From a virus (lineage: Duplodnaviria > Heunggongvirae > Uroviricota > Caudoviricetes), in the IMG/VR virus record IMGVR_UViG_2537562223_000006: 46,570 nucleotides of DNA; one strand, 5' to 3'. A program made the position numbers and the translations under genes. Under the pieces are notes generated by a model that was not told where the DNA came from, did not search any database, and saw only the letters and a list, made by a program, of their open reading frames with translations. Positions 1 to 6,495 of the stretch are shown here, one piece after another (the first letter of the stretch is position 1; each line of letters starts with the position of its first letter).

Positions 1-1284
1 TTACTTCTTCGCCTCTGCAACCACTTTACTACCCACGCCGCGGTTATTGTATTCCCACATGCGGTTGTAGTTAGTGTCATTCAGATTGCGCTGTATTTCG
101 TCGTTATCATCTACGCTGCCGGTATTACCCGCAAACGGACGATTAGAGATCACCGCATCGGCCCACGGTTTAGCCGTGTTAAAACCTTCGTTGATGGCGC
201 TATCACGGATCACCACCTGACCGTTGGTATTGGCATCAACATCCAGCGAGCGGCCCAGTTGCGCCACACCATCACCGAAAGCATTGAAACGGCTGTTTAC
301 GGCGAGGAAACCGTAGTAAATGTTGGACAGCGTAGCCGGTGCAAACACATACGCTTCTTGCTGAGTACGTGAGTTCACCACGCGGAATTCGGTGTTATCG
401 AACACCACTGCGCCGCGACCAGAAACGATATCCACATCCCCTTCAATGTAGCTGTTGGTCACCAGCGTACGCGGCTGACGGTTGGTTTCCAGACGGTTCT
501 GCACACCGCTGTTGGTGACAAAGAAGGTGTTCTGACGACCGAGAATGTTAACGTTGTTAATCTGTACCTGGTCACCATCAGTACGCAGTGCCACCGCCGG
601 ATGGTTACCTGCATCTACGCTATCGCCCAGCGTGTTTTCGATGGTCAGATTTTGCAGTTGCAGGCCATTGTTTTGTGACCAGAAGACCGCAGAGCAGAGA
701 ACACCGATACTGTCGCTGCGTTTGCTCTGGCAGCTATCGTACATATACCACGCTGGTTTACCTGGCATATATTTGCCGCGCGGGTTGACGTCGTGACGCC
801 AGTCGGCAGGGCTCATGCCACCATCAAGGGAAAGCCCAATCTTCACATCAATCGGTTTTTCACCTGTACCGTACAGAGTAATTCCACCCGGAGCGGCAGG
901 GACATATACCGTTCCCTGATACTCACCAGGCATCACGGCAATATACTGGCGCTTGTTGGTACGCTTGATAATTGCCGCATCTACCGCCGCCTGAATCGTG
1001 GTATGCGTTACACCTTGAGTGCCCGCCGGGCCGACAACAAAGTCAGGTTGCGCAGGCAGGGTAATCGGGGAAGGATTCCACGCTGCAGCACCTGGTGTCA
1101 GGGATGCAAAATAGTGTTGAGCATCGAAATTCTGCGCTTCTTTTGCCGACAGAATCGGGCGAGAAGAGGTACCAGGCGCGGTTTGATCAGAAGGACGTTG
1201 ATCGGGCGGGGTTGAGCTACAGGCGGTCAGCGTCACGCCAAAAGCCAATGCCAGCGCCAGACGGGAAACTGAAAATGTGTTCAC
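1..1284 (-). CDS. ybhC: Host outer-membrane lipoprotein YbhC (pectinesterase-family acyl-CoA thioesterase), complete
   Basis: 427-aa ORF with lipoprotein signal (LTACSS); recalled as E. coli YbhC, the gene flanking lambda attB. Stop at 1-3. Confidence 0.9.
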   Translation of the reverse strand: MNTFSVSRLALALAFGVTLTACSSTPPDQRPSDQTAPGTSSRPILSAKEAQNFDAQHYFASLTPGAAAWNPSPITLPAQPDFVVGPAGTQGVTHTTIQAAVDAAIIKRTNKRQYIAVMPGEYQGTVYVPAAPGGITLYGTGEKPIDVKIGLSLDGGMSPADWRHDVNPRGKYMPGKPAWYMYDSCQSKRSDSIGVLCSAVFWSQNNGLQLQNLTIENTLGDSVDAGNHPAVALRTDGDQVQINNVNILGRQNTFFVTNSGVQNRLETNRQPRTLVTNSYIEGDVDIVSGRGAVVFDNTEFRVVNSRTQQEAYVFAPATLSNIYYGFLAVNSRFNAFGDGVAQLGRSLDVDANTNGQVVIRDSAINEGFNTAKPWADAVISNRPFAGNTGSVDDNDEIQRNLNDTNYNRMWEYNNRGVGSKVVAEAKK

Positions 1285-1315: not shown

Positions 1316-1430
1316 AATCCGTTGAAGCCTGCTTTTTTATACTAAGTTGGCATTATAAAAAAGCATTGCTTATCAATTTGTTGCAACGAACAGGTCACTA
1401 TCAGTCAAAATAAAATCATTATTTGATTTC
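1316..1430. other. attL: attL (host arm, 15-bp lambda core at 1331-1345, phage P' arm)
   Basis: Core GCTTTTTTATACTAA at 1331-1345 followed by sequence recalled as the lambda attP P' arm (..ACAGGTCACTATCAGTCAAAATAAAATCATTATTTGATTTC..), directly abutting int. Confidence 0.9.
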
Positions 1431-2489
1431 AATTTTGTCCCACTCCCTGCCTCTGTCATCACGATACTGTGATGCCATGGTGTCCGACTTATGCCCGAGA
1501 AGATGTTGAGCAAACTTATCGCTTATCTGCTTCTCATAGAGTCTTGCAGACAAACTGCGCAACTCGTGAAAGGTAGGCGGATCCCCTTCGAAGGAAAGAC
1601 CTGATGCTTTTCGTGCGCGCATAAAATACCTTGATACTGTGCCGGATGAAAGCGGTTCGCGACGAGTAGATGCAATTATGGTTTCTCCGCCAAGAATCTC
1701 TTTGCATTTATCAAGTGTTTCCTTCATTGATATTCCGAGAGCATCAACATGCAATGCTGTTGGGATGGCAATTTTTACGCCTGTTTTGCTTTGCTCGACA
1801 TAAAGATATCCATCTACGATATCAGACCACTTCATTTCGCATAAATCACCAACTCGTTGCCCGGTAACAACAGCCAGTTCCATTGCAAGTCTGAGCCAAC
1901 ATGGTGATGATTCTGCTGCTTGATAAATTTTCAGGTATTCGTCAGCCGTAAGTCTTGATCTCCTTACCTCTGATTTTGCTGCGCGAGTGGCAGCGACAGG
2001 GTTTGTTGTTATATGGCCTTCAGCTATTGCCTCTCGGAATGCATCGCTCAGTGTTGATCTGATTAACTTGGCTGACGCCGCCTTGCCCTCGTCTATGTAT
2101 CCATTGAGCATTGCCGCAATTTCTTTTGTGGTGATGTCTTCAAGTGGAGCATCAGGCAGACCCCTCCTTATTGCTTTAATTTTGCTCATGTAATTTATGA
2201 GTGTCTTCTGCTTGATTCCTCTGCTGGCCAGGATTTTTTCGTAGCGATCAAGCCATGAATGTAACGTAACGGAATTATCACTGTTGATTCTCGCTGTCAG
2301 AGGCTTGTGTTTGTGTCCTGAAAATAACTCAATGTTGGCCTGTATAGCTTCAGTGATTGCGATTCGCCTGTCTCGGCCTAATCCAAACTCTTTACCCGTC
2401 CTTGGGTCCCTGTAGCAGTAATATCCATTGTTTCTTATATAAAGGTTAGGGGGTAAATCCCGGCGCTCATGACTTCGCCTTCTTCCCAT
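1419..2489 (-). CDS. int: Lambda-type integrase (tyrosine recombinase)
   Basis: 356-aa ORF starting MGRRRSHERRDLPPNLYIRNNGYYCYRDPRTGKEF; near-identical to lambda Int by recall; ATG at 2489. Confidence 0.97.
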   Translation of the reverse strand: MGRRRSHERRDLPPNLYIRNNGYYCYRDPRTGKEFGLGRDRRIAITEAIQANIELFSGHKHKPLTARINSDNSVTLHSWLDRYEKILASRGIKQKTLINYMSKIKAIRRGLPDAPLEDITTKEIAAMLNGYIDEGKAASAKLIRSTLSDAFREAIAEGHITTNPVAATRAAKSEVRRSRLTADEYLKIYQAAESSPCWLRLAMELAVVTGQRVGDLCEMKWSDIVDGYLYVEQSKTGVKIAIPTALHVDALGISMKETLDKCKEILGGETIIASTRREPLSSGTVSRYFMRARKASGLSFEGDPPTFHELRSLSARLYEKQISDKFAQHLLGHKSDTMASQYRDDRGREWDKIEIK

Positions 2490-2599
2490 TTCTGATCCTC
2501 TTCAAAAGGCTACCTGTTACTGGTCGATTTAAGTCAACCTTTACCGCTGATTCGTGGAACAGATATTCTCTTCCATCCTTAACCGGAGGAGGGAATATC
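2467..2599 (-). pseudogene. xis: Excisionase xis, 3' fragment (codons ~31-72), separated from its 5' part by the IS insertion
   Basis: Reverse strand translates ..IFPPPVKDGREYLFHESAVKVDLNRPVTGSLLKRIRNGKKAKS*, stop overlapping int start as in lambda. Confidence 0.9.
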
Positions 2600-2671
2600 T
2601 GAAGTGGTTTACTGAATTTGGCCACCTGAACAAAGGTGATATGCTCACCTCAGAACAACACAGGTGTCATA

Positions 2672-3840
<1,169 letters not shown>

Positions 3841-3848
3841 CCACTTCA

Positions 3849-3937
3849 ATCCTGCATTCGCGCACCCATCGACGAACTGTTTCAAGGCTTCTTGGGCGTC
3901 GCTGGCGAGCGTTCCACTCCTGAAGTGTCAAGTACAT
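3849..3937 (-). pseudogene. xis: Excisionase xis, 5' fragment (codons 1-30), interrupted by the IS insertion
   Basis: Reverse strand from ATG at 3937 translates MYLTLQEWNARQRRPRSLETVRRWVRECRI, the lambda Xis N-terminus; the two fragments plus one copy of the 3-bp duplication sum to 219 nt (72 codons + stop). Confidence 0.9.
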
Positions 3938-3976
3938 CGCAAAGTCTCCGCAATTACACGCAAGAAAAAACCGCCA

Positions 3977-4144
3977 TCAGGCGGCTTGGTGTTCTTTCAG
4001 TTCTTCAATTCGAATATTGGTTACGTCTGCATGTGCTATCTGCGCCCACAGCATCCAGTGGTCATAGCAGTCGCTGATGTTCTCGGCTTCGATAACTCTG
4101 TTGAATGGTTCTCCATTCCATTCACCTGTGACTCGGAAGTGCAT
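3977..4144 (-). CDS. Small hypothetical phage protein (55 aa), orf55-like, upstream of xis
   Basis: ATG at 4144 preceded by GGAG; MHFRVTGEWNGEPFNRVIEAENISDCYDHWMLWAQIAHADVTNIRIEELKEHQAA; below the 60-aa cutoff of the ORF track. Confidence 0.6.
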   Translation of the reverse strand: MHFRVTGEWNGEPFNRVIEAENISDCYDHWMLWAQIAHADVTNIRIEELKEHQAA

Positions 4145-4458
4145 TTATCATCTCCATAAAACAAAACCCGCCGTAGCGAGTTCAGATAAAAGAAATCCTC
4201 GTCAGTGCGAGGATGCTGTTCATTGCTGCTATACACTTTTTTGCTCTCAACGTAAGCGGTAGCCCATTCTGTTGGGTTGGTGCAGTTGCTTTTAGGAAAT
4301 GCTATTTACCCCTTAAATGTCGGCTGAAAGAGCTAAAATCCATGCAAAAAATTTACGCAATTTTGTGTATTATTGTGCAGTAAGTAATGAGCTATTTTCT
4401 GCGCAAAAAATGGATGGTAAATTTGTCCGGGTCAGGAAAAATTTTATGGGCGCTAAAC

Positions 4459-4989
4459 ATGAAAAAAGATTCGTATCCTTATTTGATTTGCATGACAGTT
4501 TCAGGGCTGATCTTTATTTTCCTTTTCTTCTGGTGGCGGGCAGATATCTACAGGGTCACGTTTCTTAATCAGAGTATATCCCACTATTACATTCTGTTTA
4601 GCATGGGAATAGCTTTTCTGTTATCTCTGTTTTGGGTTAAGAAGGGGATAGTAAAACAAAGCGGCTGGAAGAGTCTGTCAGCATACCTTAAGGTTTATGC
4701 AGGGATGTGCATATTTGCTGGATTTTTTCTGATTATACCCCTTACGACACTAACTTATTTTTTGCCTGGAGAGACATCGTCTTATGTTGCACCGTATCGG
4801 TATACTTCCGGTAGTTCAAAAAGTTGTTCTGGAGCTGAGGTGGATGACCCCGATCTACATGAGAATATTCGCATTTGCTATCCGTATGGCAATTATGAGT
4901 ACGATAATATTATCTATGTTGAAAAGAAAATTAATATATTAGGTGCGGTAGTGACATATGCACAGACCGCGCGTGATGATACTGAATGA
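4459..4989 (+). CDS. Hypothetical integral membrane protein (~4 predicted TM helices plus ~70-aa C-terminal soluble tail); AT-rich moron
   Basis: Long ORF (track 4387-4989); ATG at 4459 gives MKKDSYPYLICMTVSGLIFIFLFFWW..; hydrophobic segments; opposite strand to surrounding early genes; low GC by eye. Confidence 0.6.
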   Translation: MKKDSYPYLICMTVSGLIFIFLFFWWRADIYRVTFLNQSISHYYILFSMGIAFLLSLFWVKKGIVKQSGWKSLSAYLKVYAGMCIFAGFFLIIPLTTLTYFLPGETSSYVAPYRYTSGSSKSCSGAEVDDPDLHENIRICYPYGNYEYDNIIYVEKKINILGAVVTYAQTARDDTE

Positions 4990-5023
4990 TATAGTATATA
5001 GCGGGCAAGTTTTAGTTAATTTA

Positions 5024-5048
5024 TCGAGGTAATATAATTTACCTCGAC
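5024..5048. terminator. Perfect 9-bp stem hairpin (TCGAGGTAA / TTACCTCGA) between convergent genes; possible bidirectional terminator
   Basis: tcgaggtaatataatttacctcga followed by T-containing tract; lies between the ends of the membrane-protein gene and the TraR-like gene. Confidence 0.4.
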
Positions 5049-5199
5049 TCGTTTGTTCTGGTATTAATATTTCGCTTTACGACCGATTTTTATCTGATGA
5101 TATCATGCGGTTTTCATATACTGACTTACTGTCTTTTCTCCGTTAGCGATTTTCTCCTGCTCAGCGATGATTTTATCTTTGGCTTCTAGTTAATTTCGC

Positions 5200-5421
5200 T
5201 CACTTCGAACCTCTCTGTTTACTGATAAGCTCCAGATCTTGCTGGCAACTGGCACAAGTCCGACAACCCTGAACGGCCAGTCGTCTTCGTTCATCTATCG
5301 GATCGCCACACTCACAACAATGAGTGGCAGATATAGCCTGGTGGTTCAGGCGGCGCATTTTTATTGCTGTGTTGCGCTGTAATTCTTCAATTTCTGATGC
5401 TGAATCAATTATGTCTGCCAT
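5200..5421 (-). CDS. TraR/DksA-family C4 zinc-finger protein
   Basis: 73 aa; CxxC..(17)..CxxC motif (CCECGDPIDERRRLAVQGCRTCASC), typical of phage TraR-like proteins. Confidence 0.8.
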   Translation of the reverse strand: MADIIDSASEIEELQRNTAIKMRRLNHQAISATHCCECGDPIDERRRLAVQGCRTCASCQQDLELISKQRGSK

Positions 5422-5519
5422 CTTTCATTAATCCCTGAATTGTTGGTTAATACGCTTGAGGGTGAATGCGAATAATAAAAAAGGAGCCTGTAGCTCCCTG
5501 ATGATTTTGCTTTTCATGT

Positions 5520-5735
5520 TCACCGTTCCTTAAAGACGCCGTTTAACATACCGATTGCCAGACTTAAGTGAGTCGGTGTGAATCCCATCAGCGTTACCGT
5601 TTCGCGGTGCTTCTTTAGTACGCTACGGCAAATGTCATTGACGTTTTTATCCGGAAACTGCTGTCTGGCTTTTTTGATTTCATAATTAGCCTGACGGGCA
5701 ATGCTGCGAAGGGCGTTATTATGTTCTATTGTCAT
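5520..5735 (-). CDS. Small conserved early protein, lambda orf60a-like
   Basis: ATG at 5735 with GAGG RBS, coupled to the upstream gene stop; MTIEHNNALRSIARQANYEIKKARQQFPDKNVNDICRSVLKKHRETVTLMGFTPTHLSLAIGMLNGVFKER. Confidence 0.6.
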   Translation of the reverse strand: MTIEHNNALRSIARQANYEIKKARQQFPDKNVNDICRSVLKKHRETVTLMGFTPTHLSLAIGMLNGVFKER

Positions 5736-5742
5736 ATTGGCC

Positions 5743-6495
5743 TCACACTTCGAATGCCAGTTGAGGGGTAAAGACGTCCCGTTCAGCGTTGTAATTAAGT
5801 GAACTGGCACTGTTGAATGATTCAATGCGTTCCACAAGAACTTGCGTACGGGTTTCTTTACTTGCGGGAGCATATGGCGAACCTACCCAGGATTTGTCGA
5901 TGCCTATATTTCTTGCGACGTTCGTGCTGTCTGCAGACGAAAGCGGTACATGAGTAAAAATGTCTTTATTTAACATCCGTAACCCATGAATCTTGGTGAT
6001 TGGGTAGCCGTACTGATCTACAACATGACGTATAAGATCGCGTAGTTTAGCCCGACACGCTCTCGGTCGTTTTGCATCGTATTCCCCCATCGAGCCGATG
6101 CAGACGCGGGGAAACTCATGGCACAGACGAATAAATCGCTCATCTGGTTCGTTCATGTGCCACACCGGAGCACCAATAAATTTACCGTGAGGCCATGCCG
6201 CAATCAGGGCGTCATTCTCTTCACTGGTTCCGCCGATAACATCCGGGATAACCGCGAATGAGAAACGAGGGTGATTGCCCCAGCGTTCAACAAATCTGTA
6301 ATATTCATTCCAGTCTACGGCCTTGTTTTTTGTCCAGAATGTGAATGCACCATTATCAAGAGCAAATGATTGGGTGACTTCGGAAGCCAGATCAATCTGA
6401 GCTGGATTAGCAAAACTGATGAATGCGTGTCTGCCTTTCCAGGCTTTCAACGCACAGGTATCGGGAGTTATTGGACCACCGTGAAAATGAATCAT
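5743..6495 (-). CDS. Hypothetical early protein, 250 aa, unknown function
   Basis: Uninterrupted ORF (MIHFHGGPITPDTCALKAW..) in the leftward operon directly downstream of exo; no family confidently recognised. Confidence 0.6.
   Translation of the reverse strand: MIHFHGGPITPDTCALKAWKGRHAFISFANPAQIDLASEVTQSFALDNGAFTFWTKNKAVDWNEYYRFVERWGNHPRFSFAVIPDVIGGTSEENDALIAAWPHGKFIGAPVWHMNEPDERFIRLCHEFPRVCIGSMGEYDAKRPRACRAKLRDLIRHVVDQYGYPITKIHGLRMLNKDIFTHVPLSSADSTNVARNIGIDKSWVGSPYAPASKETRTQVLVERIESFNSASSLNYNAERDVFTPQLAFEV

Follow-up and report, generated by a model that had tools for sequence, protein, structure and literature searches.

What does a lone AT-rich gene, read against all of its neighbors, do in the early-left region of a lambdoid phage? 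We followed up such a gene in a virus record assigned to the Caudoviricetes (IMG/VR IMGVR_UViG_2537562223_000006), whose full length of 46,570 nucleotides is the window referred to below. An initial annotation, made without database searches, had described the locus as a moron that encodes a four-helix membrane protein and that might serve in abortive infection or exclusion.

The inserted block and its control region

The gene lies in a low-GC block (GC 0.36-0.41 versus 0.44-0.57 in the flanks) between the xis-proximal ORF55 and a TraR/DksA zinc-finger gene (Table 1). The one long ORF of the block is on the plus strand, opposite to int, ORF55, the TraR gene, exo, bet, and gam. Both features are as the initial annotation had described them, and the peptide quoted there is present in the sequence. 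Comparison with phage records sets the edges of the block: the left flank, common to 214 records, ends at query position ~91 (window ~4240), and the right flank, common to 182 records, starts at query position 7 (window 5187). Among phage records, the block itself occurs only in 434, mEp332, and 2B8. It is also present in 905 of 5,426 complete E. coli genomes (about 17%), including the ybhC-site prophage of O157:H7.

Just left of the block, the leftward (pL) operon has two intrinsic terminators in tandem, where the phage 434 record M60848 annotates t-L4. These tL4 terminators belong to the lambdoid backbone and lie in the flank common to the 214 records. A 56-aa ORF at 4213-4383, which the 434 annotation calls a "putative membrane protein," was excluded from the module because it overlaps the tL4 terminators and lies mostly beyond the unit shared with P2-like prophages. 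An Rfam search over positions 3900-5500 found no RNA family.

Downstream, the gene is followed by its own intrinsic terminator, located on the gene's strand. The perfect 9-bp hairpin described initially is present, with arms at 5024-5032 and 5039-5047 around a 6-nt loop, and it ends at 5047 rather than 5048; CTCGTTTGTT comes directly after it. The hairpin has a folding energy of -12.9 kcal/mol (z = -2.6) and was also picked up by a terminator scan. It is kept in the P2-type E. coli copy, where alignment with the stem in the window reveals one A-U pair changed to G-C, a compensatory substitution, one C-G pair changed to U-G, and one pair lost.

Three features in the Juhala/Hendrix definition of morons, as summarized in PMC3594210, are seen in the block: it is extra DNA relative to related phage genomes, its composition differs from that of the surrounding genes, and it carries its own terminator. 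The definition also calls for a promoter, for which the block has a candidate element (described below), and for expression from the repressed prophage, which is presumed here. The earlier reading of a moron in a variable accessory region is further borne out by the inversion relative to the pL operon, by a conserved promoter-like element, and by the presence of the same cassette in an unrelated phage family. The block is a textbook moron, with a putative promoter region, one gene, and a terminator, set in a lambda-type prophage against the direction of its early-left operon.

The region upstream of the gene contains three direct repeats phased at 10 bp (TTACGCA at 4353, TTGTGTA at 4363, and TTGTGCA at 4373) and, closer to the start codon, a candidate extended -10 element, TGGTAAATT. 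The conserved form of this element, TGnTAAnTT, lies 44 to 48 nt ahead of the start codon in six lineages (the lambda-type copy, the KplE1-remnant copy, three P2-type lineages, and a Cedecea chromosomal copy). A generic sigma-70 promoter scan upstream of the gene found none. TGnTAAnTT may function as a promoter element, with transcription predicted to start near 4430, some 30 nt upstream of the ATG.

In the CPT annotation of phage 434, the equivalent of 4363-4376 is labeled as a CII consensus, the "CII box." Together with the orientation of the cassette, antisense to the pL operon, this favors another reading of the locus, in which a TTGT-N6-TTGT lysogeny-establishment promoter would be activated by CII and would have a mainly antisense or regulatory function like that of paQ, with the ORF being secondary. 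We consider this extremely improbable, and a CII promoter was rejected as the main explanation because the box belongs to a repeat array that P2-type phages also keep. It consists of the last two units of the 10-bp array, whose copy number varies, and the P2-type prophages that conserve it lack a lambda-type early region, their early genes being P2-type Cox and gpA. CII-dependent promoters (pRE, pI, and paQ type) are characterized by TTGC-N6-TTGC spanning the -35 region and a suitably placed weak -10, and they are specific to phages that encode CII; only TTGT-N6-TTGT is present here, and conservation is lacking where a CII-type promoter would have its -10, whereas TGnTAAnTT is conserved. The window contains 8 occurrences of the loose CII consensus versus 10.3 expected, which is chance frequency; the genuine pI box is located at 3950-3963. 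Further, the terminator at 5024-5047 would end such a transcript short of any pL gene, and the protein is under strong purifying selection.

Table 1. Positions of the inserted block, its parts, and its neighbors in the window (residues refer to the 176-aa form)
Feature	Position	Strand	Basis or remark
ORF55, xis-proximal	3977-4144	-	
Two tandem intrinsic terminators of the leftward (pL) operon, tL4	4164..4214	-	Terminator scan; fold z = -2.56
AT-rich inserted block (moron in the broad sense, extra DNA between backbone flanks)	~4241..5186	+	GC and flank sharing
Core mobile unit (upstream control region, gene, and terminator), 758 bp	4322..5079	+	blastn against P2-like prophages
Three 10-bp-phased direct repeats, TTGTGCA type	4353..4379	+	1-3 phased copies in lambda-type and P2-type modules
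Candidate extended -10 element	4415..4423	+	Conserved TGnTAAnTT
CDS, 176-aa predicted inner-membrane protein (stop codon included)	4459..4989	+	Met25 start, hydropathy, AF2, dN/dS
TM1, residues 5-29	4471-4545	+	Hydropathy, AF2
Loop 1, predicted periplasmic	4546-4569	+	
TM2, residues 38-61	4570-4641	+	Hydropathy, AF2
Loop 2, Lys-rich, predicted cytoplasmic	4642-4668	+	
TM3, residues 71-101	4669-4761	+	Hydropathy, AF2
C-terminal domain, five-stranded OB-like beta-barrel, residues 102-171	4762..4971	+	
Intrinsic terminator of the moron (9-bp stem, 6-nt loop, T-rich tail)	5024..5059	+	Terminator scan, folding
TraR/DksA zinc-finger gene	5200-5421	-	Pfam PF01258, E 5e-9

The gene and its predicted membrane protein

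PGAP and GenBank give the product as 200 aa (ATG at 4387) or 188 aa (ATG at 4423). Met25 of the 200-aa ORF is the invariant first residue in all homologs, and the frame of the N-terminal extension is interrupted by stop codons at two related loci (L013 and L015). For these reasons the two longer starts were ruled out in favor of the 176-aa form, the length that the initial annotation had estimated. Searches returned 74 close homologs and 61 homologous clusters, and the full-length homologs are all about 166-190 aa, which argues against the possibility, raised at the outset, that the ORF is a remnant of a larger disrupted gene. A giant repeat protein (P0122) was judged to be a repeat-amplified weak match. 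Between diverged copies dN/dS is 0.10-0.16, and by this measure the gene is shown to be real and under purifying selection.

Where four helices and a polar ~70-aa tail had been described, hydropathy and a full-length AlphaFold2 (AF2) model (pLDDT 85.4, pTM 0.70) give three transmembrane (TM) helices. The C-terminal segment of ~70 aa is indeed there, but it is not a mere tail; a further AF2 model (pLDDT 89) predicts a folded five-stranded beta-barrel that is conserved among homologs. Lys and Arg are enriched at the N terminus and in loop 2, and we infer a topology with a cytoplasmic N terminus, three TM helices, and the C terminus outside.

Residues 34 to 36 of loop 1 are modeled as a beta-strand beside the C-terminal beta-domain. 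Cys123 and Cys140, invariant in 36 of 36 sequences, lie on either side of the beta2-beta3 hairpin in the model, and a disulfide between them is geometrically plausible. Conservation is highest in loop 1 (0.61) and the C-terminal domain (0.58) and lowest in TM2, loop 2, and TM3 (0.30-0.37). The prediction puts the C-terminal domain, which together with loop 1 shows the strongest conservation, on the periplasmic side. Structural neighbors are small membrane-associated or periplasmic OB-like domains, including DUF1093 (3npp), YhhM/DUF2500 (3q6c), and CusF; the likeness to the first two, and to BcR97A (2k5q), is that of membrane-anchored or secreted small OB-like domains.

Remote homology searches, proposed in the initial annotation, place the protein in none of the Pfam, NCBIfam, PADLOC, or PDB families. 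Pfam and NCBIfam gave no family match, the PADLOC-DB 2.0 defense HMMs gave no match at E <= 1 for the window protein and three homologs, and a PDB sequence-profile search found nothing below E = 0.4. PHROGs provided no function, with PHROG 1416 (unknown function) matching the C-terminal half only. A Foldseek search with the full-length model found nothing significant in BFVD or the PDB, and a literature search on the phage name, accession, and keywords found no functional report on the protein, nor any paper that mentions it. By these comparisons, the protein family is uncharacterized and belongs to no known family.

Distribution among lambda-like phages, P2-like phages, and chromosomes

The core mobile unit aligns by blastn with an E. 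coli P2-like prophage (L015) at 76% identity over 761 nt and with Salmonella P2-like loci at 71% identity. A similarity of window positions 5100-5190 to L015, past the terminator, is unsupported, as the blastn HSP ends at 5079. Four independent homolog lineages (E. coli, two Salmonella, and Klebsiella) lie beside varying cargo in the P2 gpA-gpQ locus, where P2 has old and tin and which has been documented as a hotspot for anti-phage systems (PMC9122126). In many P2 hotspots all of the genes are of unknown function, and for a fraction of these an antiviral role is predicted (PMC13586616). Non-defense genes, such as those for toxin-antitoxin systems and partition, are likewise part of P2 and lambda cargo regions, an observation that weighs against an exclusion role.

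At three P2-type loci (L004, L015, and L016) the GC content of the gene is 0.38-0.42 versus 0.54 in the flanks; the exception is a Klebsiella P2-type locus (L019), with 0.44 versus 0.42. The alignments between the two phage groups show that the cassette was moved horizontally by phages between lambda-like and P2-like genomes.

All members of this small family are from Enterobacterales. Chromosomal members, GC-ameliorated and syntenic, are present in six Enterobacter species, and further members occur in Klebsiella, Pseudescherichia/Cedecea, and Serratia and on Pantoea megaplasmids. Judged by their matched GC content, the chromosomal copies in Enterobacter and Klebsiella are older. The Serratia and Klebsiella chromosomal copies adjoin ptsG and a bgl-type PTS gene. 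A GTDB peptide-pattern scan used strict patterns and returned only 10 loci, so the context statistics are small-sample. The chromosomal and megaplasmid members are equally compatible with a housekeeping envelope role, which counts against the exclusion reading.

The protein might be an envelope or host-fitness factor unrelated to phages, encoded by a lysogenic-conversion gene that benefits the host. Its membrane-anchored periplasmic OB-like domain would then bind a small ligand, a metal, an envelope polymer, or a host protein and have a stress, antimicrobial-peptide, or colonization role. A cellular role of long standing is suggested by the GC-matched, syntenic copies in Klebsiella and the six Enterobacter species; the copies on Pantoea megaplasmids and the OB-like structural neighbors point the same way, and morons often code for non-defense fitness factors (PMC3594210). 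However, the chromosomal neighbors are unrelated between genera and so provide no pathway context, the mobile AT-rich lineage is found repeatedly in phage cargo and defense slots, and the family is limited in size and taxonomic range. We regard this explanation as rather unlikely.

Possible roles of the protein

The role that we consider most likely, and favor tentatively, is superinfection exclusion at the stage of DNA entry. Support for an abortive-infection or exclusion effector, as suggested in the initial annotation, is circumstantial and comes from the four lineages in the P2 old/tin hotspot; no known defense family matches. In the exclusion model, the cassette would be expressed from the prophage in lysogens to yield a 176-aa inner-membrane protein, in which the short TM1-TM2 loop and the OB-like beta-barrel, probably disulfide bonded, would form one conserved periplasmic surface, with the TM helices serving chiefly as an anchor. 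This surface could bind the tail-tip or ejection proteins of an incoming phage or a host inner-membrane entry portal. Genome translocation would be blocked and adsorption unaffected, as with P22 SieA and HK97 gp15.

P22 SieA is likewise the product of a small, separately transcribed, prophage-borne gene (162-164 aa), with three predicted TM helices and an exclusively inner-membrane location; it acts on the ejection-protein conduit and thereby blocks DNA delivery. The moron protein shares the small size and, by hydropathy and AF2, the three helices, with a probable location in the inner membrane. An hhalign comparison of the family profile with P22 SieA gave a probability of 0.2% (E = 0.28), placing the protein outside SieA types A to C, and homology was rejected on this basis. 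The layouts differ as well: SieA has TM1, a soluble loop of ~55 aa, and a C-terminal TM2-TM3 pair, without a C-terminal beta-domain or a conserved Cys pair, whereas in the moron protein three TM helices are followed by a 70-aa beta-barrel. The SieA locus is found in P22-like podoviruses, adjoining the ejection-protein genes, and not in the xis-exo region or the P2 hotspot.

HK97 gp15 is the product of an archetypal moron with deviant GC and its own promoter and terminator; expressed from the prophage, it inserts in the inner membrane and blocks genome entry, leaving the outer-membrane receptor untouched (PMC3594210). Its homologs are mostly chromosomal, non-prophage genes of Enterobacteriaceae (PMC3594210), which parallels the Enterobacter, Klebsiella, and Serratia copies of the present family. 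gp15 is termed a "small protein," is related to YebO, and has its gene within the tail operon (PMC3594210), whereas the moron protein is larger, combines three TM helices with a folded domain, and is encoded in the early-left accessory region. The present family is set apart from gp15/YebO by this description, and Pfam gives no significant match.

Old is a cytoplasmic ATPase-TOPRIM nuclease and Tin targets the T-even single-stranded-DNA-binding protein; neither is a membrane protein. PADLOC gives no sign of a sequence relationship between them and the moron protein. The likeness is one of position, as the four homolog lineages sit in the cos-proximal slot that old and tin take in P2, convergent with gpA and with transcription signals of their own (PMC9122126).

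TM proteins of phage hotspots are often suicide effectors (PMC9122126), and the gene occupies such defense-hotspot positions. An abortive-infection (Abi) effector would sense infection, permeabilize or depolarize the inner membrane, and cause death before phage release, following a RexB-like logic within a single gene. We consider this very unlikely. No conserved sensor partner adjoins the gene in about ten contexts, so that a RexB-like pairing is absent from them, and the protein matches none of the PADLOC effector models. Conservation is weakest in TM2 and TM3 and the strongest constraint is extracytoplasmic, which would be unexpected for a channel triggered from the cytoplasm. Conservation on the predicted periplasmic face thus favors exclusion by binding over a pore-forming Abi effector, and the prominence of loop 1 and the C-terminal domain points to a binding surface rather than a channel.

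A conserved exposed domain on a small, stand-alone multi-TM protein would also suit an orphan immunity protein, whose periplasmic domain would shield lysogens from competitors by neutralizing a bacteriocin, CDI toxin, or T6SS effector whose site of action is the periplasm or the inner membrane. The gene is a singleton in variable contexts across Enterobacterales, and dispersed singletons of this kind resemble the distribution of orphan immunity genes. Such a role nevertheless appears quite unlikely: no toxin gene adjoins in any of roughly ten contexts examined, and 19 members have no match to a Pfam colicin or immunity family, even at E < 0.5. Pore-former immunity proteins are not known to have a folded periplasmic domain of ~70 aa.

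Superinfection exclusion can also be framed as a broader joint claim, that a previously unrecognized single-gene, envelope-level phage exclusion is shared by the cargo hotspots of two unrelated temperate phage lineages (the lambda-like xis-exo and P2-like old/tin slots), is domesticated in Enterobacter, occurs in roughly every sixth E. coli genome (O157:H7 among them), and blocks DNA entry at a host-side step through a periplasmic OB-like domain held by a disulfide bond. Taken jointly, these points are doubtful. One possibility for the host-side entry target is a PTS-permease portal, because chromosomal copies adjoin PTS genes, and a host-side target would explain the use of the same protein by siphovirus and myovirus prophages.

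Although phage 434 is among the classic model phages, no function was ever assigned to this gene, and the cassette is found again in the P2 hotspot, which has yielded many anti-phage systems. The analysis corrects the gene model from 200 or 188 aa to 176 aa, as well as the CII-site annotation in the 434 genome record. If the protein excludes phages, it would represent a new, structurally distinct family beside SieA, gp15, and Imm, the very few inner-membrane DNA-entry blockers, and a one-gene system that is easy to dissect and bears on phage-therapy host range. If it does not, the block would still be a clean case of one moron moving among lambda-like phages, P2-like phages, and the chromosome.

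Setting and mobility of the AT-rich block

The prophage is lambdoid and occupies the lambda attachment site, with the block lying in its early-left accessory region. IS911 splits xis, which probably leaves the prophage defective in excision; in E. coli 120899, xis is intact in a sister prophage at this site. Within the early-left operon, a DpdA/tgt-like gene matches PHROG 887, "queuine tRNA-ribosyltransferase" (E 4e-99); it is shared with Shigella phage SfI and absent at this position from phages 434 and mEp332. This gene suggests 7-deazaguanine DNA modification by the prophage.

Features of the block and its surroundings
Feature	Coordinates	Strand	Remark
ybhC	1-1284	-	first gene of the window
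lambda-type int	1419-2489	-	next to ybhC
xis	2467-3937	-	after int; C-terminal part 2467-2598, N-terminal 30 codons 3848-3937
IS911	~2599-3848		1250 bp, interrupts xis; orfA 2636-2974, orfB 3001-3840
pI box	3950-3963		true pI box
ORF55	3977-4144	-	left neighbor of block
56-aa ORF	4213-4383	+	probably no gene
Direct repeat	4327-4352 / 4386-4411		26 nt, imperfect
TAAAAT	4334-4339		alternative -10
TTGTGCA array	4353-4379		10-bp phased
TTGTGTATTATTGT	4363-4376		CII site in phage 434 record
Long ORF	4387-4989	+	sole long ORF of block
Hairpin	5024-5032 / 5039-5047	+	putative terminator
TraR/DksA zinc-finger gene	5200-5421	-	right neighbor of block
Overlapping ORF	5520-5873	-	overlaps DpdA/tgt-like gene
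DpdA/tgt-like gene	5743-6495	-	right of TraR/DksA gene
exo, bet, gam		-	after DpdA/tgt-like gene

As the initial annotation had noticed, GC content falls to 0.36 to 0.41 in the block (~4200-5250) from 0.44 to 0.57 on either side, and its gene is read against int, ORF55, TraR, exo, bet, and gam. The block is 98.9 to 99.9% identical among phages 434, mEp332, and 2B8, and tblastn of 50,697 phage records found no further carriers, whereas the left flank (to ~4240) occurs in 214 records and the right flank (from ~5187) in 182. Among 5,426 complete E. coli genomes, 905 carry it; the carriers include O157:H7 strains, where it sits in a prophage likewise located at ybhC, and a decayed remnant of the KplE1-like type. 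A different lambdoid prophage at ybhC has an identical copy. The core at 4322-5079, which spans ~137 nt of upstream sequence, the coding sequence, and the hairpin, shares 76% nucleotide identity with the cassette of a P2-like prophage from E. coli and 71% with Salmonella cassettes. The restriction of the block to three phages with common flanks, together with the same unit in P2-like prophages, upholds its first description as a moron; the cassette is horizontally mobile and probably autonomous. A 99%-identical gene copy also lies beside lambda exo on a 3.5-kb contig (L028) assigned to a Candidatus Nanosynbacter MAG; the contig almost certainly reflects contamination of the metagenome bin with E. 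coli prophage DNA.

Gene model and control region

Gene models differ among GenBank/PGAP records of 434, 2B8, and E. coli (200, 188, or 176 aa), the longer calls starting at ATG 4387 (200 aa; RefSeq/GenBank) or ATG 4423 (188 aa; phage 434 record). Three results point to ATG 4459 as the start, in agreement with the ~176-aa product originally estimated. The equivalent of Met25 of the longest call is the first residue in every one of 18 aligned homologues (identity down to 42%); the upstream frame is broken by stop codons in the KplE1-remnant copy (L013) and in a P2-type copy (L015), both of which keep the 176-aa frame intact; and the PGAP call in L013 is 176 aa. On the homologue starts and upstream stops, we rejected the two longer models. 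The PHROG 1416 profile is 90 aa long and spans the C-terminal half only; some truncated calls probably went into building this family. The 56-aa ORF, which the records of phages 434 and mEp332 label a "putative membrane protein," overlaps the hairpins of the tL4 terminators and lies mostly outside the unit common to P2-type phages.

Downstream, the perfect 9-bp hairpin is followed by a T-rich stretch and scores as a plus-strand terminator; its pairing was correctly described at the outset, with an end at 5048 that the stem does not reach. The hairpin is kept in a P2-type copy, where an alignment shows one stem pair changed from A-U to G-C.

A generic sigma-70 scan upstream of the gene found no full promoter. 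In the lambda-type, KplE1, three P2-type, and Cedecea chromosomal copies, the start codon is preceded at a distance of 44 to 48 nt by the motif TGnTAAnTT, a candidate extended -10 that would place the transcription start near 4430. The array is bracketed by the imperfect direct repeat, and use of the alternative -10 would render the repeats operator-like. In the Salmonella copy, the first repeat is presumably the complement of a DnaA-box consensus. The CII site marked in the phage 434 record would make the cassette a CII-driven regulatory unit, which we consider very improbable: the marked TTGTGTATTATTGT is two units of the TTGTGCA array (1 to 3 copies, plus one distal), an array conserved across P2-type modules; matches to the loose consensus TTGYN6TTGY number 8 in the window, versus 10.3 expected; and the true pI box lies elsewhere.

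Protein architecture and constraint

The gene is real and constrained, and its 176-aa product is conserved (dN/dS 0.10 to 0.16 with dS >1, Nei-Gojobori, window copy versus P2-type copies). When 1.84 billion representatives were searched exhaustively with a profile, only 61 clusters emerged, nearly all of 165 to 190 aa with the same architecture and none a longer parent protein; the gene is therefore not a remnant of a larger one, a possibility raised with the initial annotation. Hydropathy identifies three hydrophobic segments. An AlphaFold2 model from 19 homologues (pLDDT 85.4, pTM 0.70) has helices at residues 5-29, 38-61, and 71-101, a short strand within the TM1-TM2 loop (34-36), and a five-stranded beta domain (105-171). 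The predicted architecture is thus three TM helices, rather than the four first proposed, followed by an OB-like domain.

Among 36 family members, mean top-residue frequency is highest in loop 1 (0.61) and the C-terminal domain (0.58) and lowest in TM2, loop 2, and TM3 (0.30 to 0.37). Lys and Arg are concentrated in the N terminus and loop 2, from which the positive-inside rule predicts an N-in, C-out topology. Cys123 and Cys140, present in 36/36 members, flank the beta2-beta3 hairpin in the domain model, a placement favorable for a disulfide; such a bond would require the domain to be periplasmic. We infer a protein with a disulfide-bonded periplasmic face. A 3,074-aa giant Ig-like repeat protein (P0122) has nine matches to the Cys-containing core of the C-terminal domain (E 4e-8 overall), probably a repeat-amplified weak match and no true relative.

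Database searches returned no match to Pfam, NCBIfam, or PADLOC models, no PDB sequence relative, and no significant Foldseek match in BFVD or PDB. P22 SieA is of similar size and has three TM helices (PMC10883804), but its domain order differs and hhalign finds no homology (probability 0.2%), and we rejected SieA family membership.

Genomic contexts and possible role

In four P2-like lineages, the gene lies between the portal gene gpQ and the replication gene gpA and is convergent with the latter: in E. coli (P0039, 78% identity), Salmonella (P0043, 71%; P0048, 59%), and Klebsiella michiganensis (P0054, 56%). The adjoining cargo varies and includes a YafO toxin, ParM/StbB-like genes, small ORFs, and, in Klebsiella (L019-L021, 2281-5623), a two-gene unit of a 790-aa AAA_16-like protein and a 279-aa partner lacking any Pfam match, which may be a separate candidate defense system. 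In P2, old and tin occupy the gpA-gpQ locus, which is documented as a hotspot of anti-phage systems (PMC9122126); in a 2026 survey, it holds only unknown-function genes in 19% of P2 elements, a fraction of which is predicted to be antiviral (PMC13586616). A single-gene Abi effector, one of the two roles first suggested, is quite unlikely, and orphan immunity against toxins that act in the periplasm or on the membrane is also unlikely.

Outside P2-like prophages, a chromosomal copy is syntenic in six Enterobacter species, adjoining GGDEF and AI-2E genes, and the family is further represented in Klebsiella sp. R390, Pseudescherichia/Cedecea, and Serratia (right after ptsG) and on Pantoea megaplasmids. 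GC content is lower than in the surrounding DNA (0.38 to 0.44 versus 0.50 to 0.60) for the Serratia, Cedecea, and phage-borne copies, apart from the Klebsiella P2-type locus, where the flanking DNA is just as AT-rich; the copies in Enterobacter and R390 are GC-matched. An envelope fitness function unrelated to phages is a less probable but credible alternative. PTS permease genes adjoin homologues in 2 of ~6 independent non-phage contexts, ptsG in Serratia (L025, 4333-6510) and a bgl-type EIIBCA gene in R390 (L010/L036). DNA entry by lambda and HK97 makes use of ManYZ and PtsG, and this adjacency could be a lead on DNA entry or a coincidence.

Tentatively, the most likely role is exclusion of superinfecting phages at the step of genome entry, because the cassette recurrently occupies phage cargo and defense slots, because constraint falls on the predicted extracytoplasmic surface rather than the helices, and because SieA and gp15 provide precedents. 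Homologues of gp15 are mostly chromosomal (PMC3594210), and the family studied here likewise has chromosomal members. The protein would be expressed constitutively from the prophage and would act at the envelope.

The phage 434 record already lists the cassette, with the product called a "putative membrane protein," and as a moron it is ordinary; we rate its product among moron-encoded small, predicted inner-membrane proteins. The family has no representation in domain and structure databases, and we found no literature on it. The cassette is noteworthy in being widespread, in occupying two independent phage hotspots, and in being testable by challenging a single clone with a panel of phages.
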